64,000 bases of DNA from Trueperaceae bacterium (GTDB lineage Bacteria > Deinococcota > Deinococci > Deinococcales > Trueperaceae), in the NCBI GenBank assembly GCA_034520945.1, contig JAXHNB010000010.1, positions 32,001 to 96,000 on the forward strand. Reading direction: 5' to 3'. The notes under the pieces were generated by a model that worked only from the letters and a program-made list of their open reading frames with translations, was not told the DNA's origin and did no database searches. This document shows positions 11,859 to 50,284 of the stretch, in pieces; within the stretch, counting starts at the first letter, position 1; the number at the start of each line of letters is the position of its first letter. Position numbers and translations under genes: made by a program.

Positions 11859-11927
11859 CCTGCGTGCGTTCGAGCGTATGCAGCCCGAGCACGCACCAGG
11901 GCGGCACGCACGGTTCGGCAGCACCTG

Positions 11928-34619: not shown

Positions 34620-35305
34620 GAGGGTTCCTCCTCCAGCTTGTAGCCCACCCCGCGCACCGTGGCCAGCCGTCCGTCCGCACCCGCGGCTGCGAGTTTGTGT
34701 CTGAGGTTCGATACGTGCACGTCCACGACGCGGTCCACGCCCATGAAGTCCTCGCCCCACACCGCGTCCAGCAGTTCGGTTCGCGAGAACACGCGGCCCG
34801 GCGTGCGTGCCAGGACGTGCAGCAGGTCGAACTCCAGCGCCGTCAGCGCGACGGGGCGTCCCTGGACGCGCACGGTCCGGCGCGCGGGGTCGATGTGCAG
34901 GCCCGCGTGTTCGATCGTCTCCTGTGCGCCGCCTTCCGGCGGGGAGGTGCGGCGTAGGACCGCCTTGACCCGCGCGACCAACTCGCGGGGGCTGAACGGT
35001 TTGGCCACGTAATCGTCCGCGCCGAGCTCCAGGCCCAGCACGCGGTCGCTCTCCTCAATGCGGGCCGTGAGCATGATCACCGGTGTCGCGGCGTCGCGGC
35101 GAAGGCGCGCCAGGAACGACGGGCCGTCCAGGTGCGGCAGCATCCAGTCCAGCACGATCAACGCGGGGGTACGCTCCTGCGCGGCCCGCAGGCCGGCCAG
35201 CCCGTCGTGCGCCACCTCGACCGCGTACCCCTCGCGCTCCAGGTAGGCGCGCACCACGCTGGCGACGTCGGCGTCGTCCTCGACGACGAGGATCCTAGCG
35301 GCCAC
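34616..35305 (-). CDS. OmpR-family response regulator
   Basis: VVEDD, LDWMLP, GADDYVAKPF, VDVHVSNLR, TVRGVGY. Confidence 0.95.
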   Translation of the reverse strand: MAARILVVEDDADVASVVRAYLEREGYAVEVAHDGLAGLRAAQERTPALIVLDWMLPHLDGPSFLARLRRDAATPVIMLTARIEESDRVLGLELGADDYVAKPFSPRELVARVKAVLRRTSPPEGGAQETIEHAGLHIDPARRTVRVQGRPVALTALEFDLLHVLARTPGRVFSRTELLDAVWGEDFMGVDRVVDVHVSNLRHKLAAAGADGRLATVRGVGYKLEEEPS

Positions 35306-35323: not shown

Positions 35324-36631
35324 TCACGGCCGGTACAGGTCGGCCCGCGAGGGGGGCACCTCCACGCGGCCGCGGTCGTCGGGCTTGCCCAGCAGCGTCT
35401 GGTGGACGGACAGCCGTCCGCGCGCGAAATTGTGGGCGCTGCCGCTCATGAACAGGCGCCAGATGCGGGCGCGGTCCTCGCCGACGGTGGCGACCGCCTC
35501 ATCCCAGGACGCCTCCAGGTTGGCGACCCAATGCCGGAGGGTGGCGGCGTAGTGCTCGCGGAGGTCCTCGACGTCGCGCACTTCGAAGCCGACCGCTTCG
35601 GCGGCGCGGACCGTCTCGGTCAGGTTCAGGATCTCGCCGTCCGGGAACACGTAGCGGTCGATGAACGACGGTTGCTCCGGGTCGCGGCGGTCCTCGAAGG
35701 CGTTGGGGCCGCGGCTGATGGCGTGGTTCATCATCAGCCCGCCGGGCGCCAGTCGGTCCCAGGCGGCCTGGAAGTACTCCTGCATGCCCTCACGCCCGAC
35801 GTGCTCCGCCATGCCGATGCTGGCGACGCGGTCGAAGGTGCCCTCCACGTCGCGGTAGTCGCGAATCTCGACCGACGCGCGGTCCGCCACGCCGGCCTGG
35901 TTCAGGCGGCGCGTCCCCTCCTCCACCTGGCGTTCGGCCAGGGTGATGCCGGTGGCGCGGGACCCGTAGTGCTCGGCGGCGTACCCGACCAGGCTGCCCC
36001 AGCCGCAGCCGATGTCCAGCAGGTGATGCTCGGGGGTGAGGCGCAGCTTGCGGCACACCAGGTCCAGCTTGGCCTCCTGCGCTTCGTCGAGGGTTTCCTC
36101 GCCGGTGGGGAAGTAGCCGCAGGAGTACACCATGCGGCGGTCCAGCCACAAGCGGTAGAAGTCGACCGGCAGGTCGTAGTGGTGCCGGATGGCACTGGAG
36201 TCCCGGTTGCGGCTGTGCCGCTGGCCGCTCAGCGTGGCGGCGCCCTCGGGCGGGTGGCGCGACGCCTGGCGGCGCAACGCCACCACGTCGCCCATGGCGC
36301 GCAGGCGCTCCAGCATGCCCCCGCCGGCGGCGGCCTCCAGCAGCCCGCCCATCGCCTCGAACACGACCTCCAGGTCGCCCTCGACGTCGATCTCGCCGCG
36401 CACGAACGCTTCGCCCGCGGACAGGTCGACGGGCGGTTGGAGGGCCCGGCCCAGGGCGTACGGGTCGGACAGAACCAGCGTGGCCGGGGGTGCGCCCTCG
36501 GCGTCGCCGGAGGCGGGGAGGGTGCTGTCGTCCCACAGGCGCACCGCGAACGGTCTCGGTTCCGGCGCGATGTACGACAGCAGGCGCAGGGTGCGTTCCT
36601 TGGCTTCGGAAGCTTCGCGTGAGATGGTCAT
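35324..36631 (-). CDS. Cyclopropane-fatty-acyl-phospholipid synthase family SAM methyltransferase
   Basis: HHYDLP, MVYSCGYF, LLDIGCGWG, SIGMAEHVG, YVFPDG, HYAATLRHW; GGAGAGG RBS before ATG 36631. Confidence 0.9.
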   Translation of the reverse strand: MTISREASEAKERTLRLLSYIAPEPRPFAVRLWDDSTLPASGDAEGAPPATLVLSDPYALGRALQPPVDLSAGEAFVRGEIDVEGDLEVVFEAMGGLLEAAAGGGMLERLRAMGDVVALRRQASRHPPEGAATLSGQRHSRNRDSSAIRHHYDLPVDFYRLWLDRRMVYSCGYFPTGEETLDEAQEAKLDLVCRKLRLTPEHHLLDIGCGWGSLVGYAAEHYGSRATGITLAERQVEEGTRRLNQAGVADRASVEIRDYRDVEGTFDRVASIGMAEHVGREGMQEYFQAAWDRLAPGGLMMNHAISRGPNAFEDRRDPEQPSFIDRYVFPDGEILNLTETVRAAEAVGFEVRDVEDLREHYAATLRHWVANLEASWDEAVATVGEDRARIWRLFMSGSAHNFARGRLSVHQTLLGKPDDRGRVEVPPSRADLYRP

Positions 36632-36742
36632 CGCCTTGCACCTCTCCATACTTCCGCCGACGCCACCCCTCGTGCGGCGGTTTTTGATCGTATGGGCATG
36701 TTAGCAACCTGCCTCCGATACGCGCGACGCCCCATGGACGAC

Positions 36743-37414
36743 CTATTCGTGCCGTGACCGCGCCGCACGCAACGCCGCGGCCGCGGCTTCGGCGTCCGCC
36801 GGGCGGTTCACGTTGCGGAGCGCGCCGGCCGGCAGCGCCGAGACCGCGACGGCGGTGACGCGCCCCTCGCGCATCGCCGCGTCCAGCCAGGGCTGGAGCG
36901 ACGTGCGCGTCGGCGTTTCGGGCGTCAGCATGCCGGCCAGCTCGGCGCCGAGTGACCCGTGGTACAGCGCCGCCAGGGGTTCCCAGCGTCCGTCCGCGTC
37001 GCGCGGCACCACCGCGAGCGTCCCGCGGCGGTGGCAGGCCGCCAGCCGGGGCCACCACGCGGGCGGCAGGAGCGGCAGGTCCACCGCCTGCACCGCCACC
37101 CAGTCCCGAGGGTGCCGCGCCAGCACCGTGGCCAACCCGCCCATGGGGCCGAGCCCGGGCCGGTCGTCAGGCAGGGCGGTCACGTGGGCCGGGAGCGACG
37201 GCGCGAGGGCGGCTGCACGCTCAGGGGCACCCAGCACCACGTACACCGTGTCGGCGTCCGCGTGCGAGGCGAGGGCCAGGTCGATCAAGCGCCGGCCCGC
37301 CAGGCGCGCCAGCGCCTTGTCGCGACCGAAGCGGCGGGAACGCCCGCCGGCCAGCACGGCGCCGCACCAGCCGCCCTGCGGTCCCGCTGGGCTCCCCTCC
37401 GGCGTGCGGGTCAT
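36743..37414 (-). CDS. mobA: Molybdenum cofactor guanylyltransferase
   Basis: LAGGRSRRFGRDKA, GPMGGL, AVDLP, EPLAALY, NVNRP. Confidence 0.9.
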   Translation of the reverse strand: MTRTPEGSPAGPQGGWCGAVLAGGRSRRFGRDKALARLAGRRLIDLALASHADADTVYVVLGAPERAAALAPSLPAHVTALPDDRPGLGPMGGLATVLARHPRDWVAVQAVDLPLLPPAWWPRLAACHRRGTLAVVPRDADGRWEPLAALYHGSLGAELAGMLTPETPTRTSLQPWLDAAMREGRVTAVAVSALPAGALRNVNRPADAEAAAAALRAARSRHE

Positions 37415-37515
37415 ATGCCAGTGTACGCCCCACGGGAACGGCCATAGCATGCCCTTGCCGATGGCGGGGCGGGGCGCGCCGTGCGCCTCGTGCCGGAACC
37501 TGGGGCGGGAGGTAG

Positions 37516-38805
37516 ATGATGCGTGTTTCGATGAAGCTCTTGTTGTTGTCCGTGTGGCTGGGGGTCGCGGCCGCGCCGGCGTGGGCGCAGGCACCGACCA
37601 TCACGGTCGCGGCCGAGCTCGGCGGCGTGTTCGACGCCCTGGCGGCGGCCTATCCCGGCGAAGCGCCGCAGCGCAGCGCGGGCGAAGCCGATCTGGTGCT
37701 CGCCCCGGGCCGAGCGTCCTGGGACGAGGTGCGCACCGTGGTGCCCGTACCGGACGTCACGCTGCGCGCTCGGACGGACGACGCGGAGGCGGCGGCGTTC
37801 CTGCGCTTCGCCCGGTCGCCGGACGCGCAGGCGGCGTTGATCGAGGGCGGCTTCCTGCCCGCCGAGGTCAGCGTGAGCGACCAGGCGGGCCGCACGGTGC
37901 GCGTGCCGCAACCGGTGCGGCGCATCGCCAGCCCCTACGGCCTGTCCACCTACCTGGTGTACGCGGTGGGGGCGGGCGACCGGCTGGTGACGGCGGGCTA
38001 CCTCGGCGCGCGGGACCCACAGGGGGCCGCGGCGATGGAGCGCATCGATCCCGACTTCCCCGAGGTGAGCGCCGCCGCGCCCGCCGACACCACCAACGTC
38101 GAGTTCCTGGCGACCCTGGCGCCCGACCTGGTGGCGTCCAGCGCCCGCGCCGAGTGGATCCCCTCCGCCCAGGCGCTCGGCATGCCCGTGCTGGCGTTCG
38201 ACGGCGAGTCGCCCGACGCGCTGGCCGACGCGATGCGGATGACCGGGCGCGCCTTGGGGCCCGACGCGGCCGCGCGGGCCGACGCCTGGGTCCGCTACTA
38301 CCGCGACGTCCTGGCGCGGGTCGCGCGGGCCACCGAGCAGGGGCGCGCCGCGCCGCGCGTGCTGTTCACCGGCACCGATCCCAGCCGCGTCGCCAGCGGG
38401 CAGATGTACCAGACCGACCTGATCCAGGCGGCGGGCGGCGTGTCGGTGACGGCCGGCCTGCGCGGGCATTGGGCCGAGGTGGGCCTCGAGCAGGTGCTGG
38501 CGTGGAACCCCGAGCTGATCCTGGTGCCCCCGTACGGAGGCGCGTCGGTGGCGGCCATCACGAACGACCCGTCGTGGCAGTTGCTTCCCGCCGTGCGCGA
38601 GGGGCGCGTGCTGCGCGTGCCCAAGTTGGTCGCGCCGTGGGACACCCCCGTGCCCGATTCGGTACTGGCGGTGGTGTGGTTGGCCGAGGTGCTGCACCCT
38701 GACGCGACGGACCTGTCGTGCGCCGAGGAGGCGAGGTTCTTCTACCGGCGGTTCTACGACTACGCGCTCACCTCGGACGAGGTCACGTCCCTTTGCCGGC
38801 GCTGA
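37516..38805 (+). CDS. Class III ABC substrate-binding protein (MolA/BtuF/FecB fold) with an N-terminal ModA-like segment
   Basis: Signal peptide (AWA-Q); about 90 aa ending AAAFLRFARSPDAQAALIEGGF; then VSDQAGRTVRVPQPVRRIAS, NVEFL..L.PDLV, EQVLAWNPELI, WLAEVLHP. Confidence 0.82.
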   Translation: MMRVSMKLLLLSVWLGVAAAPAWAQAPTITVAAELGGVFDALAAAYPGEAPQRSAGEADLVLAPGRASWDEVRTVVPVPDVTLRARTDDAEAAAFLRFARSPDAQAALIEGGFLPAEVSVSDQAGRTVRVPQPVRRIASPYGLSTYLVYAVGAGDRLVTAGYLGARDPQGAAAMERIDPDFPEVSAAAPADTTNVEFLATLAPDLVASSARAEWIPSAQALGMPVLAFDGESPDALADAMRMTGRALGPDAAARADAWVRYYRDVLARVARATEQGRAAPRVLFTGTDPSRVASGQMYQTDLIQAAGGVSVTAGLRGHWAEVGLEQVLAWNPELILVPPYGGASVAAITNDPSWQLLPAVREGRVLRVPKLVAPWDTPVPDSVLAVVWLAEVLHPDATDLSCAEEARFFYRRFYDYALTSDEVTSLCRR

Positions 38806-39878
38806 GCCAGACCGACGAGGCCGCGACGGTCGCACGTGCCCCGAGGGGATGGCGCCGCCTCCCCTCCCTCGAGGCCTGGAGGTGGGCGGGCACCGCGGCC
38901 GGCCTGGCGTCGCCGCTGCTGCTGGCGCTGATCGCGCTCAGCATGGGCCTGTACCAGGTGAGCCCGTGGGACGTGGCGCGCTCGTTGGCGTCGCTGCTTC
39001 ATCCGGAGGTGGCGGCGGACGTGCCCGAGATCGCCCGCCGCCTGGTGTTGGACGTGCGGCTGCCGCGGGTGCTGGCCGCGCTGCTGATCGGGGCGGGGCT
39101 GGCCGTCACCGGGGTGGTGTTCCAGGGGATCTTCACCAACCCGCTGGTCGACTCCAACCTGCTGGGGGTCACCTCCGGCGCGGGCTTCGGCGCCGCCCTG
39201 GTGCTGCTGCTCGGCGGGTCCGCCTGGGCGGTGCAGGCGTCGGCGTTCGCGTTCGGCCTGCTGGCCGTGTCGCTGGCGTTCCTGGGGTCGCGCCTGTACC
39301 GCAGCGCCCCCAAGATCGTGCTGACGCTGATGGGCATCCTGATCGGGTCGTTCTTCGCATCGCTCACCTCGCTGCTGAAGTACGTCGCCGACCCGTTGGA
39401 CGCGCTGCCCTCGATCACCTTCTGGTTGCTGGGGGGCCTGACGGGCGTGGGGTGGCGGCACGTGCCGCTCCTGGCGGCGCTGACCGCGGCGGGCGCGGTG
39501 TTGTTCCTGCTGGTTCGCTGGCGCCTCAACGTGCTGTCGCTGGGCGACGCCGAAGCCTCCGCGCTCGGCATGCGCCCGGAGCGCATGAAGCTGATCCTGA
39601 TCATCGCGGCCACCCTGGTCACCGCCATCGCCGTCTCCGTCGGCGGGGTGATCGGCTGGGTCGGCCTGGTCGTACCGCACGCGGCCCGCATCGTGGTGGG
39701 GCCCGATCACCGCCGCCTGGTGCCGATGTCCCTGGCATTGGGCGCGTCGTTCCTGCTGATCATCGACACCGTGTCGCGGGCCCTGCTGCCCTCGGAGGTG
39801 CCGCTGGGGGTGCTGACCGGCCTGATCGGCGTCCCGATCCTGGTGCTGCTGTTGCGTCGCACGCGGACGGGGTGGTGA
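38793..39878 (+). CDS. FecCD/BtuC-family (MolB-like) ABC permease
   Basis: RLPRVLAA, FQGIFTNPLVD, GVTSGAGFG, LGDAEASALG, GWVGLVVPH; start (TTG 38793) uncertain. Confidence 0.9.
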   Translation: MPALSQTDEAATVARAPRGWRRLPSLEAWRWAGTAAGLASPLLLALIALSMGLYQVSPWDVARSLASLLHPEVAADVPEIARRLVLDVRLPRVLAALLIGAGLAVTGVVFQGIFTNPLVDSNLLGVTSGAGFGAALVLLLGGSAWAVQASAFAFGLLAVSLAFLGSRLYRSAPKIVLTLMGILIGSFFASLTSLLKYVADPLDALPSITFWLLGGLTGVGWRHVPLLAALTAAGAVLFLLVRWRLNVLSLGDAEASALGMRPERMKLILIIAATLVTAIAVSVGGVIGWVGLVVPHAARIVVGPDHRRLVPMSLALGASFLLIIDTVSRALLPSEVPLGVLTGLIGVPILVLLLRRTRTGW

Positions 39879-41254
39879 GCGTGGCCAGCCTGGTCGCCAC
39901 CGACGTGACCTTCGGCTACGACCCGGCCGTGCCGGTGGTGCACGACGTCTCGGTGCACGTCGGCCCCGGCGAGGTGCTGTTCCTGCTGGGGCACAACGGC
40001 AGCGGAAAAACCAGCCTGCTGTCCTGCTTGAACGGCGTCCAGCGGCCGACGCGAGGCCGCATCACGCTGGACGGCGTGGACGTGCAGGCGCTGGACGCCG
40101 CGCGGCGGGCACGCCGCATCGGCATGATCCCCCAGGTGCACGTGGCGACCTTCGCGTACAGCGTGCACGACGTGGTCCTCATGGGCCGGGCGCCGCACCT
40201 GTCCACGTTCGCGGGGCCCCGCGCGGAGGATCACGCCATCACCCGGCACGCCCTGGAACGCGTCGGCCTGGCGGACCTCGCGCAGCGGCCCTACACCGAG
40301 CTCAGCGGCGGCGAACGGCAACTGGTGATGGTCGCCCGCGGCCTGGCGCAGCAGTGCGACGTGCTGCTGATGGACGAGCCGGACGCGCATTTGGATCCGC
40401 GCAATCAGTACCGCGTGCTGGAGGTGGTCTCCGACCTGGCGCGCCAGCAGGGGCTTTCGTTCGTGGTGTCGTCGCACGCGCCGAATTCGGCGCTGATGTT
40501 CGCCGACCGCGTGGTGCTGTTGCGTCACGGCCGCGTGCTGGCGTCCGGCGGCGTGGAGGACACCCTCAGTGAGGACCGGTTGGCCCAGGCGTACGGCATG
40601 CCGACCGAGGTCGTCACCAAGGTCGTGAACGGGCGGCGGGTGCCGCGGGCCATCCTGCCGCGGCGTATCGACCGGGTGCCCGACGACTTGGAGGCCCTGG
40701 CGCTGACGCCGGCCGCGCTCGATCGACCCGGATCGGCGTTGGCGCGCCTGTTCGACGCGGCCCAGACGGAGCCGCAACGCCTGATCGTGACGGGGGCGCG
40801 TGGGGCCGGCAAGAGCCGCTGGTGCCAGGCGCTGGTGGCGCGCGTGCGGGCGCGGGGCGCCCGGGTGGCGGGGGTCTCCTCACCCGCCGTCCTGCGCGAG
40901 GGGCACAAGGTCGGCATCGACCTGGTCGACCTCGCGACCGACACCCGCCGGCGCCTGGCGGCGCTGCGGCGTGACGACGAGGGCGGCCAGACCACGGAGC
41001 GCTGGCGCTTCGACGACGCCGTGCTGGCGTGGGGCAACGAGGTGCTCCGGGCCGCCGCCGCGGCACGTCCGGACCTTCTGCTGGTGGACGAGCTCGGCCC
41101 GCTGGAGTTCCACCGTAGCGCCGGGCTGACCGCTGGCATCGACGCGGTCGACGGGGGCGCGGCCGGGGTTGCGTGCGTGGTGGTGCGCCCCTCGTTGCTA
41201 AAGGCGGCGACGGCGCGGTGGCCGGACGCTGTGATCGTCGACGTGGAGGATTGA
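39875..41254 (+). CDS. ABC ATPase fused to a C-terminal second P-loop NTPase (THEP1/NTPase_1- or DUF2478-like)
   Basis: GHNGSGKT, LSGGERQ, LLMDEP, SSH; then from about 40775 TGARGAGKS and LLLVDELGPLE. Confidence 0.88.
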   Translation: MSVASLVATDVTFGYDPAVPVVHDVSVHVGPGEVLFLLGHNGSGKTSLLSCLNGVQRPTRGRITLDGVDVQALDAARRARRIGMIPQVHVATFAYSVHDVVLMGRAPHLSTFAGPRAEDHAITRHALERVGLADLAQRPYTELSGGERQLVMVARGLAQQCDVLLMDEPDAHLDPRNQYRVLEVVSDLARQQGLSFVVSSHAPNSALMFADRVVLLRHGRVLASGGVEDTLSEDRLAQAYGMPTEVVTKVVNGRRVPRAILPRRIDRVPDDLEALALTPAALDRPGSALARLFDAAQTEPQRLIVTGARGAGKSRWCQALVARVRARGARVAGVSSPAVLREGHKVGIDLVDLATDTRRRLAALRRDDEGGQTTERWRFDDAVLAWGNEVLRAAAAARPDLLLVDELGPLEFHRSAGLTAGIDAVDGGAAGVACVVVRPSLLKAATARWPDAVIVDVED

Positions 41255-41351
41255 CCTCGGGCCCCGAAGGGCTCCGCCGACGGTGCACGTCACGAAAGCG
41301 GCACGGGCGACGCCGAAGGCGTGCCCGCGCCGAAGATCGCGGGGGGCGCGG

Positions 41352-42257
41352 CTAGATCAGGGGCTCGAACACCCCGGCCAGCAGCACCGCCGCCCGCAGG
41401 AAGAACACCCCCGCCAGCGCCGAGACCGCGGACAGCGCGAGGAGCGGCTTGTTCTTGCCGCGGACCAACGTGTACGCGCCGATCGCCAACGGGACCAGAA
41501 TGCCGATCACGACGATCCCGCCCCAGGTCATCAGGGCAAACTCGCCTGAGGTCATCGCCTGGGCGCCGAGGCGGGCGCCGGCGCTGCCGATCGAGAGGCC
41601 GATGTACAGGAAGGACAGGACGGCCAGCAGCTTGGCGGCGTCGAGCCCCATGCCCAGTCGGACCCCGAAGGCGGAGACCTGCTCGTCCACCCAGCCGAAG
41701 ACGTACATCAGCTCGAGCACGGCGATGGCGGCGATCGACCCGCTGATCACCCACAGTACCGGGATCAGCGCGCTGTTCCAGAGTGGCACGCCGGCGGCCT
41801 GGGTGATCAGGAAGCCGCTGTAGACGGTGACGGCCACGCCGAGTGCGGCGAATAGGCCCACGAAGACGTTGCTGTCATCCAGCGTTCGCGTCCAGCCCAG
41901 CCAACCGATGCGCTCGGAGAGGAACGACAGCTGGGCGACCACCAGGATCAGCGTCGCCAGCAGGTGCACCGACAGCAGCATGATGCCGATCAGCATCCAG
42001 GAGCTGACGTTGAAGTCGAAGTTCACGACCATCAGCCACAGCGTGCGCGGCAGGTTCCACCAGCGGCCCAGGTGGCTGACCACCAGGAGCAGACCGACGA
42101 CCAGCGATCCGAAGATCACCAGCGCCAACGGTCGGCGGCGTACGAAGTAGTAGGCGACCGATCCCATGCCGGCGATGCCGACGAACCACAGGAACCAGGC
42201 GATCGACCAGCCCCAGTGGGCGATGTCGACCTGCATGTGAAGCTCGGCCGGTGTCAT
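41352..42257 (-). CDS. NrfD/PsrC-family membrane anchor subunit
   Basis: WGWSIA, HLGR, SSWM..G, YSGFLI....VPLWN, GVFFLR; about 8 TM; start overlaps the stop of the FeS subunit. Confidence 0.9.
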   Translation of the reverse strand: MTPAELHMQVDIAHWGWSIAWFLWFVGIAGMGSVAYYFVRRRPLALVIFGSLVVGLLLVVSHLGRWWNLPRTLWLMVVNFDFNVSSWMLIGIMLLSVHLLATLILVVAQLSFLSERIGWLGWTRTLDDSNVFVGLFAALGVAVTVYSGFLITQAAGVPLWNSALIPVLWVISGSIAAIAVLELMYVFGWVDEQVSAFGVRLGMGLDAAKLLAVLSFLYIGLSIGSAGARLGAQAMTSGEFALMTWGGIVVIGILVPLAIGAYTLVRGKNKPLLALSAVSALAGVFFLRAAVLLAGVFEPLI

Positions 42258-42862
42258 CAGGATCCCTCCACCACGAAGTACTTGGGCTCGGTACCGGCGT
42301 CCTCGAGCAGGCGCCGGCTGCGCTTGGTCCTCAGCGTGATGCTGACGCTGCTGTCCGGGTCGTTCAGGTCGCCGAAGTCGCGGGCCATCGCCGGGCAGGC
42401 CTGCACGCAGGCGGGCGGAAGCCCGTTCGCGATCAGCTCCTGGCAGCCCTCGCCCATGCACTTCTCGGGCAGGTGCGTGTCGGGGTGGAACCAGCGCACG
42501 TTGTACGGGCAGCTGGTCACGCAGTAGCTGCAGCCGGCGCAGCGGGTCGGATCGAGTTGGACCAGGCCGTCATTGTCGTAATAGACGGCGCCGAACGGGC
42601 AGTTGGTCACGCACGGCGCGTTCTCGCAGTGCTGGCACTGCACCAGCAGCACCTCGGGGCGGCCCTGGGCTGTGACGCTGTCGATGCGGCGGATGTTGGA
42701 CGCGAGCGAGTTCCAGCCCTTCTCCTCGCGCGCCATCATGTCGGGGGCGTTGGTCGAGGTGCAGGCCATCACGCAGGCGCCGCAGGCGATGCACCTGCTG
42801 GCGTCCCATACGTGCGCGAGCCGGCGTTCGGGCGTTTCTCCTCGCTTCAGGCGGGTGCTCAT
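42257..42862 (-). CDS. Four-cluster FeS subunit (PsrB/NrfC/DmsB family)
   Basis: CIACGACVMAC, CQHCENAPCVTNCP, CAGCSYCVTSCP, KCMGEGC...PACVQACP. Confidence 0.95.
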   Translation of the reverse strand: MSTRLKRGETPERRLAHVWDASRCIACGACVMACTSTNAPDMMAREEKGWNSLASNIRRIDSVTAQGRPEVLLVQCQHCENAPCVTNCPFGAVYYDNDGLVQLDPTRCAGCSYCVTSCPYNVRWFHPDTHLPEKCMGEGCQELIANGLPPACVQACPAMARDFGDLNDPDSSVSITLRTKRSRRLLEDAGTEPKYFVVEGS

Positions 42863-42880
42863 TTCAGGAATCCTCCTCGC

Positions 42881-45427
42881 TCACGCCCGGCGGATGCGCA
42901 CGGAGGCGTTGTTGGCGTTGGCGCCGGTGACCGGGTCGACCGTCGCCCTGGAGAACCAGTGCGGGTTGATGCCCTGGGCCCTTCGGGCGAAGCGTTCGTC
43001 CTCGGCGACGCCGCGGCCGCGGTGACCGCCGGAGTAGGAGTAGACGAACAGCGCGCCGGGGTGCACACGCGGCGTGACGTTGACGGTGGTGGTGGCCTTC
43101 CAACCGGTGTCGAGGCCCTCGATCTCGATCTCGTCGTCGCTGGCGAGGCCGAGCCGGGCGGCGTCGTCGGGGTGGATCCAGACGCGGTTGTCCAGCAGGT
43201 ACTGGGTCGGGAAGGCGAGGCTGGAGACGCCGGACGAACCGATCGGGCTCTTGCCGTTGACCAGGAAGAACTCGTCATCGCCGCGCGGCATGGTGTAGGC
43301 GGGCGGGTCGAAGTAGGTCGCGAAACCGCGCTCGCGGTAGCCGCGCAGCACCGGCCGGAACGCGTAGATCTCGAGCCGGCCGCTGGGCGAGGCGAAGGGA
43401 CGGTTGTACGGCGTGCCGCCGTAGCGCTGCTCCTGGAAGGTGACGAAGCCCTTCTCGCGGAGCTCGGCGAGCAGCTCGTCGGGATCGCGGTTCCAGTTCT
43501 CCGCCAGCTTCTCGATCTGGAGTTGCTCGACGTGGTGGAACCAGTCGCGCTTCCAGGTGTCCACATCGGCCATGCGCTCGTCGTGACCCATCATCGCGGC
43601 CTTCTGCGGGTAGGCGGCGCGCAGCATCTCCAGGGCGATCCAGGCGTCCGGGCGGACGTCGGCGCCCTCGGGCGGGTCGGTGACCTTCTGCTGCAGCGCC
43701 GCGGTCGCGGTCATGGTCCAGCCGACGCCCGTGAGGTGGTCGCGCTCCAGGAACATCTCGGCCGGCAGCACGTAGTCGGACCAGTCGTTCAGCTCCTGGT
43801 CGACGATATCGACATTGACGATCAGGTCCAGCTTCCCGAGCGCCTCCTCGATGCGGGCGACGTTGGGGTCGCGGTGGAAGATCGTCGCGCCGAACAGCAC
43901 CAGCGCCGACACCTTGTACGGGTCCTCGTCGAGCACGCCGCCGAGCACCGCGTCGAAGGTGGCGTTCGTCTCGGGGTAGACCGCCTTGTCGATGCGTGGG
44001 GCGTCGGACTTGAGCTCGAAGCTGTCGCCGGTGATCAGCGAGACCATGCCGCCGGAGTTGCCGATCACGCCGGGGACCTTGGAGCTGGGGCGGACGCACA
44101 TGCCGCCGAGGCGGTCGAGGTTTCCGAGCAGACCGTTGACGGTCATGAGCGCCATGATCACGTCGGTGTCGTTGCCGTTTCGCGTGTTGTACCAGGTGTC
44201 CTCGACGACGCCCTGCATGGTGTGCAGCTCGCGGGCGATCCGCGCGATCGTCGCGGCGGGGACGCCGGTGATCTCTGCGGCCCGCTCGGGCGCGTAGTCG
44301 TCCAGGTGCTCCAGCAGCAGGTTCCATGCCGTGGTGACGGTCGCCTCGCTCCCGTCGGCAAGCGTGAGCGTGCCGGCGTAGACCAGCTCGGGCTCGAGGT
44401 CCTCGTCCTGGTGGAAGGCGATCTGGCCGTCGGTGCCCATCAGCGCGAACAGGCCCTCGTCGCCGTCCTCCTGCAGGTCGGCCTGGGTGAGCGGCTGGCC
44501 GTCGTCCTTGATGAGGAGAGGAAGGTTGGTGTAGCGGGTGACGAAGTCCTCGTCGAAGCGTGCCTCGTCGATCAGCACGTGGGCGACGCCCAGCATGAAC
44601 GCCGCGTCGGTGCCGGGCGTGCACGACAGCCACTCGGCGTCGGCGTAGGCCACGTCGGGGTGGGCCGGGTTGAGGAAGACGACCTTGGCGCCGTGCTCGC
44701 GGGCCTTCGCCAGGCGGTGGACCGCGCCGATCGGGGCGTTGAGGCTGCGGCCCGGGAACACCACGTAACGCAGGTTGTCGTAGTCGGGGTCGATCACCGC
44801 GTGGTGGTCGAAGCCGCTGCCCATCATCCAGCGGCGGCCGACGACGCCGGCGGTGTTGCAGGTGCTGGCCTGCGTGATCATGTTGGGCGAGCCCAGGCCC
44901 CAGGCCAGCAGGCTGGCCTCGGTCTTGTAGTCGTGGGTGCTGACGACGACCGAGCGGGCGCCGTCGCGTTCGACGATCTCGCGGAGCTTCGCGCCGATCT
45001 CTTCGAAGGCCTGCTCCCAGGTGATCTCCTCATAGCGGCCCTCGCCGCGCTCGCCGACGCGCTTGCGGGGCTTGCGCAGCCGCAGCGGGCTGTTCCACGT
45101 GTAGGGCGCGGTGGCGCCGCGCCCGCACATGCCGCGTTGCGGGTGGTCGGGGTGTTGGTTGGGGAGGATCAGCATGGCATCCTCGCCCGGCGGCATCCCC
45201 TTCTTCACCAGTCCGGTCAGGCCGCAGCCGGCGCCGCACTGGTGGCAGATGGTGTGACGCACCAGGTAGCCGTTGCGTTCGAGCCCCTCGACATCGATGC
45301 CGTCGGGCCCGAAGAACGGCTGCGCGTCGACCCAGCCCTTCTGCGCCAGCAATGCGGCGGTGGCCACCGACGCCGAGCCGGCGAGGAACCGGCGGCGGCT
45401 GACGGGCCGTTCGTGGAAGCTTCGCAT
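42881..45427 (-). CDS. Tat-exported Mo/W-bisPGD oxidoreductase catalytic subunit, polysulfide/thiosulfate reductase (PsrA/PhsA)-like
   Basis: SRRRFL Tat motif; CHQCGAGC...CGRG FS0 cluster; ISWD-like ITWEQA; QASTC putative Cys ligand; PGTDAA, DYVLP..FLER, SPSGRLE, WIHPDDA. Confidence 0.9.
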   Translation of the reverse strand: MRSFHERPVSRRRFLAGSASVATAALLAQKGWVDAQPFFGPDGIDVEGLERNGYLVRHTICHQCGAGCGLTGLVKKGMPPGEDAMLILPNQHPDHPQRGMCGRGATAPYTWNSPLRLRKPRKRVGERGEGRYEEITWEQAFEEIGAKLREIVERDGARSVVVSTHDYKTEASLLAWGLGSPNMITQASTCNTAGVVGRRWMMGSGFDHHAVIDPDYDNLRYVVFPGRSLNAPIGAVHRLAKAREHGAKVVFLNPAHPDVAYADAEWLSCTPGTDAAFMLGVAHVLIDEARFDEDFVTRYTNLPLLIKDDGQPLTQADLQEDGDEGLFALMGTDGQIAFHQDEDLEPELVYAGTLTLADGSEATVTTAWNLLLEHLDDYAPERAAEITGVPAATIARIARELHTMQGVVEDTWYNTRNGNDTDVIMALMTVNGLLGNLDRLGGMCVRPSSKVPGVIGNSGGMVSLITGDSFELKSDAPRIDKAVYPETNATFDAVLGGVLDEDPYKVSALVLFGATIFHRDPNVARIEEALGKLDLIVNVDIVDQELNDWSDYVLPAEMFLERDHLTGVGWTMTATAALQQKVTDPPEGADVRPDAWIALEMLRAAYPQKAAMMGHDERMADVDTWKRDWFHHVEQLQIEKLAENWNRDPDELLAELREKGFVTFQEQRYGGTPYNRPFASPSGRLEIYAFRPVLRGYRERGFATYFDPPAYTMPRGDDEFFLVNGKSPIGSSGVSSLAFPTQYLLDNRVWIHPDDAARLGLASDDEIEIEGLDTGWKATTTVNVTPRVHPGALFVYSYSGGHRGRGVAEDERFARRAQGINPHWFSRATVDPVTGANANNASVRIRRA

Positions 45428-45452
45428 CGACACCCAACCTCCCATCTCACGG

Positions 45453-45470
45453 TCGTGATTCATTTCACGA
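45453..45470. promoter_or_regulatory. Palindromic operator, Rex- or CRP/FNR-family-like, upstream of psrA
   Basis: TCGTGA-TTCATT-TCACGA, lying just downstream of a minus-strand TTGCCG(45511-45506)-18 bp-TAGCGT(45487-45482) promoter candidate. Confidence 0.55.
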
Positions 45471-45651
45471 TCTCGCCATTGACGCTAGGCTGTGTAGAGG
45501 TCTCCCGGCAACGGAAGAATGTCCCCAGGCCGAGGCCAACGCTCCGCCGGCACGCGTGCCAGCGCTGAGGGCCGCTTTCGGTCGTCGAGATCGGGCAGGA
45601 TCACTGCAACGGGCACTGGGCCCACGGGCCTCGAAGCAGAAGGGAGCACGC

Positions 45652-46089
45652 ATGAAGCGAAACCTGATCGTCCTGCTCGTCCCCCTGTTGGTGACCGGCG
45701 CCGCAGGCCAGGTCGAGTCCACCGCCGCGTCGGAACGGATGGCCGAGGTCATCGAACGGGCCAGCCGGTCCGGCTGGTTGCAGCTTGGCGTCGAAGAAGC
45801 GGCCGCGTACATCATCCAAGTGGAGCCGTTCCTCCTGGATGTACGCACGGTCGACGAGTTCGACGACGGCTACATCGAGGGCGCCGTGAACGTGCCGGTC
45901 ACCGAACTGGACGCCAACCTGCATCGACTGCCCACCGACCTGGACACGCCGATCCTGGTGTACTGCGCGAAAGGCACGCGCAGCTTTTGGGCGCAGGCGT
46001 ACCTGACGGCCCTCGGCTACGACAACGTGCAGAACCTGCGGGAGGGGTTCCGCGCTTGGCGCGCGGCGGGTTTTCCGAGCGCACCCTGA
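45652..46089 (+). CDS. Secreted single-domain rhodanese (sulfurtransferase)
   Basis: Signal peptide MKRNLIVLLVPLLVTGAAG; LLDVRTVDEF..GYIEGAVNVP, active loop YCAKGTRS, GFRAW. Confidence 0.9.
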   Translation: MKRNLIVLLVPLLVTGAAGQVESTAASERMAEVIERASRSGWLQLGVEEAAAYIIQVEPFLLDVRTVDEFDDGYIEGAVNVPVTELDANLHRLPTDLDTPILVYCAKGTRSFWAQAYLTALGYDNVQNLREGFRAWRAAGFPSAP

Positions 46090-46166
46090 CGGCGCCCTCC
46101 GAACCACATGATCGGGACCCCTTCCGCCTCGGACAGGGGCCCTCGATTCGCGCGGTCAGCGGGGGC

Positions 46167-47513
46167 TCAGTCGAAGCCCGGCACGGCCTGGGGCACTGCG
46201 ATGGGACGGCTGCACGCCGGCTCCTGCTCGAACAGGGCACGCTCGGCCTCCGGCAGGGTGGCGCGGGCCAGGTCGCGAATGCCGTTCACGCCGATGAAGA
46301 ACTCCCGCATCATCACCACCAGCAGGTAACGGCCGGTCTCGGTCAGTTCGAGCGCGTCGCCGTCGTCGCGTGCGAAGGCGCCGGCGGCCTTCAGGAAGGC
46401 GTACTCCAGCCACAACGCCCGTTCCACGGGCGCCCCATGGTCCCGGGCGAAGGCGCGCTTGTCCAACCGCAGGCCGAACAGGTCGATCATCATGCGGTAG
46501 CGGCGCCGGTCGCGGCGGCTCAGCGGCATGCGGGCGTCCACGCTGAGGCGGCCCTCCTCGATGGCCTCCTGGTAGCTGCGGAGCGAGAAGGTGTTGGCGT
46601 AGATCTCGCCGCCCAGGTAGCTGAACGAGCCGCTGCCCACCCCCACGTACTCCGCGTGATCCACGATGTACTCGTCGATCAAGGACGGGGCCTCGCTCGA
46701 GGAGGCCACGCGCGAGAAGGCCCAGGCCGAGGCGGGGGCGTAGCGTCCCGCCAGCGTCCGCGAGATCAGGCGGTACTGTCGCGCCTCGCGCCGGTCGTCC
46801 ACGCGGCCCAGGGCGCGCTCCAGCGGCCGCGCCACCGACGGGGACACCATCAACGGGTAGTAGGTGATCTGGTCCGGGTCGGCGTCGACCAGGAGTTCCA
46901 TGTCGCGCTGCAGGATCTCGTCCGTCAGCGAGGGCAGGTTGAAGATCATGTCGACGTTGAGGGTCGGCAAGCGCCCCCGCGCGGCGTCGAGGCCCGCCAG
47001 GATCTGCGCGGCCGAGCCGTACTTGTCGTGCCGCTTCATCTGCCGCAACAGGTCGTCGTTCAGGCTCTGCACGCCGACCGACAGGCGCTGCACGCGACCT
47101 TCCAGCGGCCCCAGCACCGCGTCGTTCAGGTGGTTCGGGTTCGTCTCCGTCGATACCTCGCCGACGTCGAACAGGTCACGGGCCAGATCGATGGTGGCGA
47201 CCAGCTCGCCCACGTCGACCGTGGGCGTGCCGCCGCCGATGTACATCGACGAGAAGCGGTACCCGCGGTCCGCCAGGATCCGCATTTCCTCCCGGAGCGA
47301 CCGGAAGTACCGGTGGGCGGCATCCTCGCGGTAGGGAAATCGATTGAACGAGCAATACGGGCACAACAACTCGCAGAACGGCACGTGCGCGTACAGCAGC
47401 AGCTCCGCGCCTTGCGCCGGTCGCGGCAGGGCGCCGGGGCGGTGCGGTTCCAGGGTGAGCTGCTGGGATCGCAAACCGCGGAGCTTGCGGGTGAGGAGCC
47501 ACCCCGCGATCAT
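46167..47513 (-). CDS. menK: HemN-like class C radical SAM enzyme, probable menaquinone methyltransferase (MenK/MqnK family)
   Basis: HVPFCELLCPYCSF, YIGGGTPT, RLSVGVQS, QITYYPLM signature, C-terminal MREFFIGVN. Confidence 0.8.
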   Translation of the reverse strand: MIAGWLLTRKLRGLRSQQLTLEPHRPGALPRPAQGAELLLYAHVPFCELLCPYCSFNRFPYREDAAHRYFRSLREEMRILADRGYRFSSMYIGGGTPTVDVGELVATIDLARDLFDVGEVSTETNPNHLNDAVLGPLEGRVQRLSVGVQSLNDDLLRQMKRHDKYGSAAQILAGLDAARGRLPTLNVDMIFNLPSLTDEILQRDMELLVDADPDQITYYPLMVSPSVARPLERALGRVDDRREARQYRLISRTLAGRYAPASAWAFSRVASSSEAPSLIDEYIVDHAEYVGVGSGSFSYLGGEIYANTFSLRSYQEAIEEGRLSVDARMPLSRRDRRRYRMMIDLFGLRLDKRAFARDHGAPVERALWLEYAFLKAAGAFARDDGDALELTETGRYLLVVMMREFFIGVNGIRDLARATLPEAERALFEQEPACSRPIAVPQAVPGFD

Positions 47514-47736
47514 CGGGGCCGACCATCAAGGCGGGCAGGACGGGGGCGATAAGAAAGCCGGGCGCTCATGTCGGTGATTCTCGTACGGGTGCCGCTGGCA
47601 TGCTAGGGCAGGATATCCCGGCCGGCGCGGCCGGCGGCGGATCGCACCGTCCCTTGACGGGTCGGTCTGCGATCGGCGTGAATGGTGCGTGGCGGCCCGC
47701 CGCCGAGGGGCCGCCTGCACGGGAGGAGTCCCAGCC

Positions 47737-48738
47737 ATGAAGGTCGCCGTGTTCAGCACCAAGACGTACGACCAGCGCCACCTGGCGCACGCCAACCAGC
47801 ACCACGGGCACGAGCTGACGTTCTTCGAGCCGCGCCTGCACCTCGATACCGCCGTGCTGGCCGCAGGATTTCCCGTGGTCTGCGCGTTCGTGAACGACCG
47901 GCTCGATGCCGAGGTATTGCAGCGCCTGGCGGAGGGGGGCACCAAACTGATCGCCCTGCGGTCGGCAGGGTTCAACCACGTCGACCTCCACGCGGCCGAA
48001 CGGCTCGGCATGACCATCGCCCGCGTGCCGGCCTACTCGCCGCACGCCGTGGCCGAGCATGCCTTGGCCCTCGTCCTGGCGCTGAACCGCAAGATCTACC
48101 GCGCCTACAACCGGGTGCGCGAAGGCAACTTCGCGTTGGAGGGGCTGATCGGCTTCGACATGCACGGCAAGACGGTCGGGGTGGTGGGGACCGGCAAGAT
48201 CGGCGCCACCTTCGCGCGCATCGTGCACGGGATGGGGTGCCAGGTGCTGGCGCTGGACCCGTACCCGAACCCGGACCTCGACGCCATCGCCGAGTACGTG
48301 TCGCAGGACGACCTCTTCGCCCGCGCGGACGTCGTGTCGCTGCATTGCCCCCTGACGCCCGAGACGCACCACCTGATCGACGCGGCCGCGATTCGGCAGA
48401 TGAAGAGGGGCGTGACGCTGATCAACACCAGCCGGGGCCAACTGGTGGACACGCGCGCGGTGATCGACGGCCTGAAGCGTGGACGCATCGGGCGGTTGGG
48501 GCTCGACGTGTACGAGGAAGAGGGCGACCTGTTCTTCGAGGACCTGTCCAACCAGGTGATCCGCGACGACGTGTTCTCGCGGTTGTTGACCTTTCCCAAC
48601 GTGCTGATCACCGGCCATCAGGGGTTCTTCACCGAGGAGGCGTTGCACGCCATCGCCGACACGACCCTGGCCAACGTGAGCGCCTTCGCGTCGGGCGAGG
48701 GCACGTTGTACCGCGTGGACGCCGAGAAGCGCGCGTAG
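47737..48738 (+). CDS. ldhA: D-lactate dehydrogenase (D-2-hydroxyacid dehydrogenase family)
   Basis: [71 protein letters not shown]. Confidence 0.92.
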
Positions 48739-48742: not shown

Positions 48743-50284
48743 GTGCCGGCCTGGGTCGACGCCTCGTTGGCGGCATCGCCGATCGTCGTCATCCTGGTGG
48801 CGATGCTGGGACTGGGGTGGTCCGCGGCGCGGGCCGGCGCCGCCGGCCTGGCCGTCGCGCTGGCGGTGGCGTGGTGGGGGTTCGGCTACGGCACGCGCAC
48901 GCTGCCCGACCTCGGTCCCGTCATGGCGAGCGGCGGGGCGCTGCTCGAGGCAATGTTCATCGCCGCCACCATCTTGTGGATCATCTTTCCGGCGCTGTGC
49001 ATTCACGAACTCCAGTCCCGAACCGGCGCGCTGGAGGTGCTGCGGCGGGCGATGGGCCGCCTCTCGCCGGACCCGCGCATCGGGGCGCTGCTGGTGGCGT
49101 GGTTCTTCGTGCTGTTCGTGGAGGGGGCGGCGGGGTTCGGGACCTCCGTCGCGCTGGCCGCGCCGTTCCTGGTGGCGGCGGGCTTCGGCCGGGTCGAGGC
49201 GGTCACCATCGCGCTGGTCGGCCACGCCGTCGGCGTCTCGTTCGGCGCGGTCGGCACGCCCATCCTGCCCCAGATGGCGGTCACGCCGTTCACGGGGCGT
49301 GAACTGGCGTCCGCGACGGCGGCGTACCATGCGCTGGCCGGGTGGGTGATGCCGCTGCTGGCGATGCTGCTGGTGACGCGCGCGCTCCCCTCCGCTCGCG
49401 GCGGCCCGGCGATCTGGGGCTGGACGCTGCTGGCGGCGGCGGCGTTCCTGGTGCCGTTCTACGCGATCGCCCGCTTCGTGGGGCCCGAACTGCCGACCCT
49501 GGCGGGATCGCTGGTTGGCGGGGCGGTGTTCGTGGCCGCGTTGACGCTCGTGCGGCGGCTCAGGGGCACGCACGACGAGGAGGCGGCGGAAGCGCAGCCG
49601 TCCGGCGGGCTGCTGCGGGCCGGTGCGCCGTACCTGGCGCTCATCGGCCTGGTGTTGATCACCCGCTTGCTGCCCGGCGTCCGCGACGCACTGTCCGAGG
49701 CCACCGTCGCGTGGGGGCTGTCCGGGGTGTTCTCCGGCGCGTTCGCGCCGCTCTACCACCCCGGCACCATGCTGATGGCGGGCTTCCTGGCGGGGGCCGC
49801 GTTGCAACGCGCCGCCACGGGCGAGGTGACCGGCGCGGCCTGGCGTGCGCTCCGTCAGTTGGCGCCGGTGACGCTGGCGCTGGTCGCGATGTTGGCGATT
49901 TCGCGCGTGATGGTGTACGCGGGCATGATCGACGCGTTGGCCGTCGCCGCGGCCGCCGCGGCGGGTGGGGCGTGGCCGCTGTTCGCGCCGTTCGTGGGGG
50001 TGCTGGGCACGTTCGTGACGGGCTCCGCCACCGCGTCCAACATCCTGTTCACCGATTTTCAGTTCGCGACCGCCGAGCGCCTCGGCCGCCCGGCGCTGCC
50101 GCTGCTGGGGGCGCAGGGGTTCGGCGCCGCGGTCGGCAACATCGTGTGCCCGCACAACATCATCGCGGCGGGCGCGACGGTGAACCTGGCCGGGCGCGAG
50201 GGCGAGGTGTTGCGGCGCACCTTGCCGGTCGCGCTGCTCTACGCCGCGATGGGCGGGGTGCTGGCGTGGTGGGTGTTCGGGTGA
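48743..50284 (+). CDS. lctP: Lactate permease (LctP family)
   Basis: Multi-TM; FVEGAAGFGT, VSFGAVGTP, GTFVTGSATASN.LF. Confidence 0.9.
   Translation: MPAWVDASLAASPIVVILVAMLGLGWSAARAGAAGLAVALAVAWWGFGYGTRTLPDLGPVMASGGALLEAMFIAATILWIIFPALCIHELQSRTGALEVLRRAMGRLSPDPRIGALLVAWFFVLFVEGAAGFGTSVALAAPFLVAAGFGRVEAVTIALVGHAVGVSFGAVGTPILPQMAVTPFTGRELASATAAYHALAGWVMPLLAMLLVTRALPSARGGPAIWGWTLLAAAAFLVPFYAIARFVGPELPTLAGSLVGGAVFVAALTLVRRLRGTHDEEAAEAQPSGGLLRAGAPYLALIGLVLITRLLPGVRDALSEATVAWGLSGVFSGAFAPLYHPGTMLMAGFLAGAALQRAATGEVTGAAWRALRQLAPVTLALVAMLAISRVMVYAGMIDALAVAAAAAAGGAWPLFAPFVGVLGTFVTGSATASNILFTDFQFATAERLGRPALPLLGAQGFGAAVGNIVCPHNIIAAGATVNLAGREGEVLRRTLPVALLYAAMGGVLAWWVFG

Follow-up and report, generated by a model that had tools for sequence, protein, structure and literature searches.

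The coupling of the polysulfide reductase Psr with the rhodanese Sud and with methylmenaquinone made by MqnK is textbook knowledge for Wolinella succinogenes. Here we analyze a locus with the same functional parts list in a member of the Trueperaceae, which belong to the same phylum as Thermus. The locus lies in a metagenome-assembled genome (MAG; assembly GCA_034520945.1, here G000), at positions 36743-47513 of a 64,000-nucleotide stretch of contig JAXHNB010000010.1 (32,001 to 96,000 of the forward strand) that we call the window. It comprises a mobA-like gene, a type II ATP-binding cassette (ABC) importer, a three-subunit enzyme of the molybdenum or tungsten bis-pyranopterin guanine dinucleotide (Mo/W-bisPGD) type, a secreted rhodanese, and a class C radical S-adenosylmethionine (SAM) gene of the MqnK/MenK/MenK2 type. 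We refer to these genes as the island and to the catalytic subunit of the enzyme as Mo860. The locus is probably a real but loosely organized respiratory island for a low-potential sulfur substrate. More specifically, we lean toward reading it as one variant of a shuffled Trueperaceae respiratory island, in which Psr-like reduction of a sulfur compound would be backed by accessory supply functions.

The likeness to the Wolinella system (PsrABC, Sud, MqnK) extends to the futalosine pathway of the window's organism; in W. succinogenes, mqnK is reported to be required for 8-methylmenaquinone (PMC10114718). This is a likeness by parts and not by W. succinogenes sequence: the window's catalytic subunit falls in another clade than the labelled Psr/Phs references of our tree, and its parts are clustered together with mobA and the importer. 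Thermus thermophilus PsrABC (2VPW-2VPZ) includes the best solved relative of Mo860, with the aligned cysteine kept, but Mo860 matches Thermus PsrA in three local stretches only (about 227 bits in total) and has ~70 extra residues between positions 312 and 381. The window's membrane anchor also differs from Thermus PsrC in belonging to Pfam NrfD rather than NrfD_2, and true orthologues of the Thermus enzyme occur in genomes of the same genus (congeners) but not in G000. Among curated models, PhsA of the Salmonella-type PhsABC (NF012032) fits Mo860 best, but at 278.7 bits against a cut-off of 694, and the PhsA equivalogs sit in a separate starred clade. The importer shares the architecture of Haemophilus influenzae MolBC-A (HI_1470-1472), namely Peripla_BP_2, FecCD, and ABC ATPase, whose cargo we take to be molybdate or tungstate; the window's version differs in an N-terminal extension of the binding protein and in an NTPase_1 domain fused to the ATPase.

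Halodesulfurarchaeum formicicum, described as salt-loving and possessing (methyl)menaquinone, is reported to co-transcribe Psr with a periplasmic rhodanese (PMC5437934), and this placement of a Psr-type enzyme beside a secreted sulfurtransferase resembles the window's gene pairing; however, this organism is a strictly anaerobic archaeon, and is likened here by description. Closer to the window, phsA in Trueperaceae MAGs is already in print at the level of KEGG annotation (PMC6704655), which was the sole relevant paper in a literature search for Truepera with psr or sulfur respiration; a search for polysulfide reductase in Wenzhouxiangella found nothing. Together with the solved Thermus PsrABC (2VPW), this tempers the surprise with which a first-pass annotation of the window, made by a model from the letters, had announced anaerobic sulfur respiration in a lineage regarded as aerobic. 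That annotation also knew of no description of the full arrangement, and our searches agree: the island, the Mo860 family as a distinct group, and its linkage with menaquinone methyltransferase (MKMT) genes were not found in print, within a literature on MKMT clustering that was partly covered. Neither was an MKMT gene in Deinococcota, a weak negative given that key literature on MKMT distribution fell outside the coverage.

Gene Content and the Mo860 Complex

Because the G+C content of the window is 66-76%, we picked genes by family matches (Pfam, NCBIfam) together with third-position G+C (GC3). The genes listed by the first-pass annotation (mobA, importer, exported Mo-bisPGD enzyme with its iron-sulfur and NrfD subunits, secreted rhodanese, and radical SAM gene) were all recovered where it had placed them by Pfam, NCBIfam, and motif matches. 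The host genome, a MAG, comprises 3.47 Mb on 10 contigs, with a completeness of 97% and a contamination of 5%. The first-pass annotation guessed at a Trueperaceae-like organism, and the source names of close Mo860 homologues, which are Trueperaceae, agree with this. Single Logan contigs run from the 5' end of the Mo860 gene across the rhodanese gene into the 3' end of the radical SAM gene, both in X1 and X2 (two runs of one sample) and in X3 (a run of another study), so an assembly artefact at this junction is unlikely.

Mo860 (42881-45463, - strand) contains Molybdopterin and Molydop_binding domains and has its likely start at Met13 (45427). It bears an RRRFL motif for twin-arginine translocation (Tat) and an N-terminal FS0 cysteine motif, CHQCGAGC...C (Cx2Cx3C...C), and its match to Molybdop_Fe4S4 is sub-threshold (19.9 vs 22.7 bits). 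The closest solved relative is 2VPW_A (Thermus PsrA; E 4.5e-66), 40 orders of magnitude in E ahead of the next chain (1.6e-26), with ArrA at 3.2e-16. C202 of Mo860, which does not vary among 25 family members, corresponds in the alignment to residue 173 of 2VPW_A, presumably the cysteine ligand (Cys173) of the molybdenum in Thermus PsrA. In the library of curated models, those of arsenate reductase (ArrA) and tetrathionate reductase (TtrA) gave 78.6 and 99.4 bits.

Two genes on the same strand complete the complex. The iron-sulfur (FeS) subunit, a PsrB-like four-cluster ferredoxin (42257-42862, -; Fer4_11 E 3.8e-21), shows four cysteine groups in its translation, and its top NCBIfam matches, all under cut-off, are NrfC, DsrO, and TtrB. 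The anchor (41352-42257, -; 301 residues; Pfam NrfD E 1.7e-23) is a quinol-binding membrane protein of the NrfD/PsrC type with about eight hydrophobic segments. Its start overlaps the stop codon of the FeS gene (TGATG), and a GGAGG resembling a Shine-Dalgarno (SD) sequence precedes the ATG at 42257. The anchor is 57-86% identical in orthologous loci, and no solved structure matched it at E <= 0.001. This trio of Mo860 with an adjoining haem-free anchor and a four-cluster FeS gene is kept in most of 58 loci, where the contig reaches.

The core of the locus would then be a membrane-anchored enzyme facing the periplasm, with a Tat-exported subunit whose Mo- or W-bisPGD carries a cysteine ligand, a four-cluster FeS subunit, and an NrfD-type anchor. 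In the mechanism that we propose, the NrfD subunit would oxidize quinol, and the four FeS clusters and FS0 would pass the electrons to the cysteine-ligated Mo/W-bisPGD site on the periplasmic side, where a low-potential sulfur compound would be reduced. Polysulfide or thiosulfate seem the likeliest acceptors, with tetrathionate, or elemental sulfur brought by a carrier, as alternatives; the caution of the first-pass annotation that the substrate is not fixed was well placed. The secreted rhodanese might bind and present sulfane sulfur in the manner of Sud. The radical SAM enzyme would methylate futalosine-derived menaquinone, and the lower potential of the resulting methylmenaquinone would allow the quinol to be oxidized with such an acceptor. 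MobA would finish the bisPGD cofactor, and the MolA-like type II importer would take up molybdate or tungstate. The genome also encodes two haem-copper oxidases, and the complex would presumably be used at low oxygen.

Distribution and Phylogeny of Mo860

A word-seeded search for Mo860 homologues returned 54 clusters at 41-92% identity, followed by a drop to 29%, and an exhaustive search of 50%-identity representatives found only five full-length relatives at >=37%. Named holders of the family are Trueperaceae, Wenzhouxiangella (including the cultured W. limi), Elioraea thermophila, and MAGs of Halomonas and Meridianimarinicoccus. Mo860-like proteins at ~40% identity occur in Sutterellaceae, other Burkholderiales, and Thermoproteota (Sulfolobales, Pyrobaculum, and Acidilobaceae MAGs), and the family search over 14 named control genomes found no loci. 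The operons are duplicated in some Sutterellaceae: Turicimonas muris YL45 has two tandem copies (L078:4181-8097 and 10001-13916), and Parasutterella excrementihominis YIT 11859 has two Mo860-like loci (listed with L086 and L088).

We placed these relatives in a FastTree tree of 169 rows and in a quick IQ-TREE tree of 59 rows (LG+G4), the latter with branch support from the Shimodaira-Hasegawa-like approximate likelihood ratio test (SH-aLRT) only. Leaves were labelled by NCBIfam scores and Protein Data Bank (PDB) matches, and the rows did not include the characterized W. succinogenes PsrA, Salmonella PhsA, SrrA, SreA, TtrA, or ArrA. The Mo860 family forms one clade in both trees (100, starred). 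In the IQ-TREE tree it falls inside a 31-row clade (99, starred) of unlabelled PhsA-like proteins. This clade, one small group, and an 11-row clade (97, starred) that holds three PhsA equivalogs and the Thermus-type PsrA make up a 45-row set with an SH-aLRT of 93. Among 60 proteins (the 59 nearest library representatives and Mo776 of the congener G007), 37 matched the PhsA model at E <= 1e-90 and three exceeded its cut-off; for 37 of the 60, no other curated model scored higher than PhsA.

The first-pass annotation had assigned the catalytic subunit to the Psr/Phs/Srr group. Its score against PhsA and its own clade outside that of PhsA and Thermus PsrA, in trees built without W. succinogenes PsrA, SrrA, and SreA, do not bear this out. 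Judged by sequence, Mo860 is instead a Psr/Phs-like sister family and not a demonstrated member of Psr/Phs/Srr. Since it belongs to an uncharacterized sister family of the canonical enzymes, the appropriate wording is that it may work like Psr, not that it is Psr. The broader lineage is itself diverse, as a published analysis places archaeal SreA within the Psr/Phs/Srr lineage and reports that the lineage also holds a selenite reductase (PMC10100899).

Conservation of the Neighborhood

Twelve Deinococcota loci, the window included, had flanks usable for comparison. A rhodanese gene stands beside Mo860 in four of them (window, L046, L047, and L064), and Thermus-type psr genes do so in 4/12 as well. 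The importer is found beside Mo860 in three (window, L048, and L050), mobA in two, and the radical SAM gene in the window (1/12). On one strand, L047 and L064 read TorD-PsrA-PsrB-PsrC-Rhod-Mo860-FeS-NrfD, and L046 is alike as far as its contig goes. L048 has mobA and then binding protein-permease-ATPase/NTPase-Mo860-FeS-NrfD-TorD, and L050 has permease-ATPase/NTPase followed by Mo860. A search of 40 relatives at E 1e-25 yielded no orthologue of the importer's binding protein, so the importer adjoins Mo860 in all three of its known occurrences.

Within the genus, an orthologue of Mo860 is present in five of ten genomes at 59-88% identity. Congeners also carry a true orthologue of the Thermus enzyme, with PsrA matching 2VPW_A at 1159 bits and PsrC at E 4.6e-51; G008, G009, and G010 show the same Thermus-type psr arrangement piecewise. 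PsrA, PsrC, and TorD of the Thermus type were not found in G000. Outside the phylum, all six Wenzhouxiangella-type loci have a co-directional MKMT-type gene ~300 bp upstream of Mo860.

Judging from these comparisons, the neighborhood of the island is more than chance, and the other Trueperaceae MAGs indicate that all its parts are pieces of one variable island. The first-pass annotation had spoken of a self-contained module. What stands of this is that the genes are contiguous and that pairs of them recur (importer 3/3, rhodanese 4/12, Wenzhouxiangella MKMT 6/6), but at least four transcription units are involved, and its proposed check by synteny likewise recovers pairwise neighbors and not the set as a whole.

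Rhodanese, Radical SAM Gene, and Quinones

The rhodanese gene (45652-46089, +; 145 residues; Rhodanese E 8e-19) encodes a signal peptide, MKRNLIVLLVPLLVTGAAG, and one rhodanese domain with the active-site loop CAKGTR, and an SD-like AAGGGAG precedes its ATG at 45652. In congeners, the last gene of the Thermus-type psr operon encodes a rhodanese that shares 51-65% identity with this protein.

The radical SAM protein (46167-47513, -) passes NF006385 with 484 bits against a cut-off of 355. Of six signature motifs of MKMT, taken from Table 2 of PMC10320005 and credited there to Wilkens et al. 2021, five are present exactly (LYxHxPFCxxxCxxCxF, YFxxxRxE, GxxFxxxYxGGGT, QxTxYPLx, and NxFxxxxY), and the sixth, RxSxGxQxFxxxxL, has a single F-to-L substitution, in line with the MenK signature first noted for this gene. 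The HemW motif HNxxYW is not in the window's protein. G000 has two MqnA/D matches over cut-off and MqnC-like genes, one of them at 421.6 bits, just under the cut-off of 428.1, and should therefore make menaquinone by the futalosine route.

Co-occurrence with Psr-like enzymes extends beyond the window. In the genus, a Psr-like enzyme accompanies the radical SAM gene in seven of eight genomes and was found in none of the three that lack the gene; as the genomes are kin, we do not treat this as a statistical test. All three Sutterellaceae genomes with a Mo860-like enzyme also hold an MKMT homologue 41-43% identical, and Sutterellaceae are reported to make methylmenaquinone (PMC11707229). A text-mining survey lists (di)methylmenaquinone only in Thermincolia, Coriobacteriia, and a few Gammaproteobacteria (bioRxiv 10.1101/2025.09.17.676790). 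The MKMT-type gene of Wenzhouxiangella has 4/6 motifs, including both of the MKMT-specific ones that are almost absent from HemW. In Wenzhouxiangella and Elioraea, MqnA/D, MqnC, MenD, and MenB were all under cut-off, and MenA was over cut-off in the Wenzhouxiangella genomes. A bolder reading, which we hold to be less probable than not, is that Mo860 represents an uncharacterized family of quinol-dependent respiratory molybdoenzymes, with members in salt-loving Trueperaceae and Wenzhouxiangella, in thermophilic Elioraea, in Sutterellaceae of the gut, and in Thermoproteota, that in several lineages would be specific to methylmenaquinone from a co-located MKMT.

In W. limi, the sole MenA-family gene over cut-off (L103; G041:C32:229000-248000) clusters with an MtrB/PioB porin and a NapC/NirT tetrahaem cytochrome; MoaA, a MobA-like gene, a MoeB-rhodanese fusion, ArsA-like ATPases, and a second UbiA-family gene are in the same cluster.

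G000 carries a second copy of the radical SAM gene (C6:459040-459834). It is truncated (residues about 163-428) and contains an in-frame TGA. Its sequence shares 90% identity with the copy beside psr in G007, and its flanks match the radical SAM locus of G005 at 77-92% identity. When G000:C6:448000-472000 was compared with all loci by tblastx, low-identity matches of the high-GC kind dominated, and at >=55% identity only synteny with the G005 locus appeared. This copy looks like a decayed paralogue, and a foreign origin is possible because contamination of the genome is estimated at 5%. In a FastTree tree of 107 radical SAM rows, all psr-adjacent copies of congeners form the sister group (99, starred) to the group of the window's copy, and this sister group includes the truncated copy, so the psr-adjacent MKMT orthologue seems to have decayed in G000 along with the loss of psrABC. 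G005 itself holds two copies of the radical SAM gene, separated by ~11 kb and flanked by similar sequence (C13:970483-971799 and 981972-983289), the second split over two frames.

A metagenome scan with the window's radical SAM protein gave nine closest homologues with flanks (L110-L118), which are 75-78% identical. In L113 (5563-11450), the homologue lies between Na/Pi-cotransporter and chromate-transporter genes on one side and a V/A-type ATPase A/B subunit pair on the other, and the setting in L114, L116, and L118 is similar (these copies being 76-78% identical to the window's). Among loci of lower identity, a Psr-like gene is within reach only in L169, L173, and L175.

mobA and the Type II Importer

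The mobA-like gene (36743-37414, -; NTP_transf_3 E 3.6e-32) lies in a frame open to 37594, and translation probably begins with the ATG at 37414, shortly ahead of a GAVLAGGRSRRFG motif. MobA models are top among its NCBIfam matches, all under cut-off (75.3 vs 179 bits), and a 56% identical homologue occupies the same position beside the importer in L048.

On the opposite strand, the importer begins with a secreted Peripla_BP_2 binding protein (37516-38805, +; E 2.7e-22) with the signal peptide MMRVSMKLLLLSVWLGVAAAPAWA. Its third-best PDB match is H. influenzae HI_1472 (E 1.1e-17), presumably the molybdate/tungstate-binding protein MolA, which outranks BtuF (about 1e-8) and siderophore binders; it is the best solved relative that we take to be functionally characterized, and the two structures that match better, 4HN9 and 4OVK, are uncharacterized. 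The protein has an N-terminal extension of ~110 residues (window 37516-37890, +; L048:5452-5830) that matches the C-terminal end of the ModA-type SBP_bac_11 just below threshold (24.5 bits in the window and 20.4 bits in L048, cut-off 25) and may be what remains of a class II oxyanion-binding domain.

The FecCD permease gene (about 38793-39878, +; E 3.2e-82), in a frame open from 38718, is 78-85% identical in L048 and L050. It is followed by an ABC ATPase gene fused in frame to an NTPase_1-like domain (about 39875-41254, +; ABC_tran E 2.2e-32, NTPase_1 E 1e-14), a fusion missing from the first-pass description. Both domains share one open frame, and the NTPase part has a GC3 of 0.91, as expected of coding DNA. 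This C-terminal domain is a P-loop of the THEP1/NTPase_1 kind with a weak match to DUF2478 and 46.6 bits, under cut-off, to NF010248; a PDB search with it gave chance-level matches only. The whole fusion is 64% identical in two other Trueperaceae MAGs (L048:7751-9256 and L050:886-2379). We know of no NTPase_1-like domain on the ATPases of type II importers.

No ModA over cut-off was found in the 97%-complete G000, and ModA is present in all six congeners that hold Psr-like enzymes. We considered this complementarity as proof of the importer's cargo and rejected it, given that ModA also occurs in two of the three genomes with the importer; the importer is thus not simply a replacement for ModABC.

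Weighing the Reading Against Alternatives

A number of results speak against a dedicated sulfur-reducing island. The enzyme itself is one source of doubt: its best curated model, PhsA, is missed by a wide interval in bits, its 31-row clade stands beside rather than inside the clade of PhsA equivalogs and Thermus-type PsrA, the searches found no characterized member of the family, and no TorD-like chaperone gene is beside Mo860 in G000, whose two such genes lie at other Mo-enzyme loci. The layout is another. The strands run -, +++, ---, +, - across the island, with at least four transcription units, and because they alternate, the genes are not one operon. The full five-part set was found in one of the twelve Deinococcota loci, the window, and nowhere else among the loci examined; in four same-genus genomes with usable contigs, the other island parts were not found within 1.2-10 kb of Mo860-FeS-NrfD. 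As for the importer, the two best solved relatives of its binding protein are annotated as uncharacterized 'iron complex' proteins, and the presence of ModA in two of the three importer-bearing genomes weakens the case for a dedicated molybdate or tungstate supply.

The link to the radical SAM gene meets similar objections. All six MKMT motifs also occur in Campylobacter jejuni CgdH2, a protein reported to act as a haem chaperone (PMC10320005), so the motifs alone are no proof of activity. An MKMT homologue was not found in Elioraea or in the Pyrobaculum MAG, which have the Mo860-like enzyme, and G005 (83% complete) has the radical SAM gene and no Psr-like match. None of the nine closest metagenome homologues (L110-L118) has a Psr-like, rhodanese, mobA, or importer gene in its flanks. 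The tree of radical SAM proteins places the window's copy with the metagenome copies adjacent to the V/A-type ATPase (SH-like 88, unstarred) and not with the psr-adjacent ones.

Three other explanations were considered, and the likelihoods that we attach to them overlap in part with each other and with that of the favored reading. The rhodanese and radical SAM genes might be leftover neighbors from a lost Thermus-type psrABC island, in which case rearrangement would account for their position next to Mo860 and no function would link them to Mo860, mobA, or the importer. In G007, G004, and G003, a TorD-like gene, PsrA, PsrB, PsrC (NrfD_2), and rhodanese are joined by a convergent radical SAM gene and Mo860 is not nearby, G000 is without Thermus-type PsrA, PsrC, and TorD, its second radical SAM copy, of the psr-adjacent type, is truncated, and Mo860 operons stand alone in four congeners. 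To this extent the idea that rhodanese and MKMT belong to one Mo860 module, put forward in the first-pass annotation, loses ground, as in congeners both flank a psrABC that was not found in G000. However, we consider mere leftovers unlikely: in the window, the rhodanese and radical SAM genes are both intact and show coding-type GC3, all six Wenzhouxiangella loci link an MKMT-type gene to Mo860 itself, and in L046, L047, L064 and, judged by TorD after NrfD, L048, one Psr-like operon adjoins the other, which makes Mo860 a regular member of the same island. About equally improbable, in our view, is a different chemistry, in which Mo860 would reduce a non-sulfur acceptor (selenite, arsenate, or an organic compound) and the rhodanese and methylated quinone would serve other enzymes. 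A methylated quinone should suit a low-potential acceptor better than arsenate or selenite, and the placement of an MKMT gene beside Mo860 in two phyla would fit this preference. The low scores of the ArrA and TtrA models and the secreted rhodanese directly adjoining Mo860 in 4/12 Deinococcota loci also argue for sulfur, whereas the distinctness of the family from every labelled reference, its abundance and duplication in gut Sutterellaceae, the selenite reductase and archaeal sulfur reductase reported for the wider lineage (PMC10100899), and a Shewanella Psr homologue described as also respiring tetrathionate (PMC12949373) leave room for other acceptors.

The complex might also run in reverse, oxidizing a reduced sulfur compound such as sulfide, thiosulfate, or sulfite and delivering electrons into the quinone pool of hosts that are largely aerobic heterotrophs. 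The two haem-copper oxidases of G000, with a haem A synthase gene 3 kb left of the island, would be consistent with this, as would Elioraea, which has the enzyme without an MKMT homologue and, like Wenzhouxiangella, is without MqnA/D, MqnC, MenD, or MenB over cut-off. Against it, the MKMT gene of Wenzhouxiangella adjoins the enzyme in genomes with MenA over cut-off. A lowered quinone potential would be expected to aid the reduction of a low-potential acceptor and not the oxidation of a donor, and we regard the reverse direction as the least probable of the three. Reduction of a sulfur compound by a variable Trueperaceae island thus remains the reading that we favor.

Implications

If the favored reading holds, Trueperaceae, usually treated as aerobic heterotrophs, would include facultative respirers of sulfur compounds in salty, sulfidic habitats. 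On the bolder reading of the Mo860 family, some of them would make methylmenaquinone and would possess a dedicated Mo/W supply, with a MolA-like importer whose ATPase is fused to an NTPase. The favored reading predicts methylmenaquinone-8, a quinone without record in Deinococci. It would also offer a handle on an uncharacterized enzyme family that is common and duplicated in gut Sutterellaceae, and cultured holders are available in Wenzhouxiangella limi C33, Elioraea thermophila YIM 72297, Turicimonas muris YL45, and Parasutterella excrementihominis YIT 11859. A general rule, by which quinone potential may be tuned together with low-potential acceptors, gains support from the fact that a quinone-methylating gene is linked to Psr-like enzymes repeatedly and in different phyla.

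Flanking Genes and Other Molybdoenzyme Loci

To the left of the island lie genes for a haem A synthase (COX15/CtaA; 32387-33490, +), a sensor kinase (33453-34760, -), a response regulator (34616-35305, -), and a cyclopropane fatty acid synthase (35324-36649, -), the last three identified by family match. No conserved link of the haem A synthase gene to the island was seen. The kinase and regulator pair (33453-35305) was considered as a regulator of the module, and in Wenzhouxiangella loci a 44% identical regulator lies upstream. The idea was rejected as unsupported: that pair sits with a CpxP-like gene, with an antiporter gene intervening, and the L048 locus has no such pair.

Directly to the right of the radical SAM gene are a D-2-hydroxyacid dehydrogenase gene (47689-48738, +) and, 5 bp after it, a lactate permease gene (48743-50284, +). 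No conserved link of these two to the island was seen; they hint at a possible electron donor, though nothing ties them to the module. Elsewhere in G000, two further Mo-bisPGD loci (C9:158860-163642 and C10:228251-233225) each carry genes for an FeS subunit and a TorD-like chaperone.

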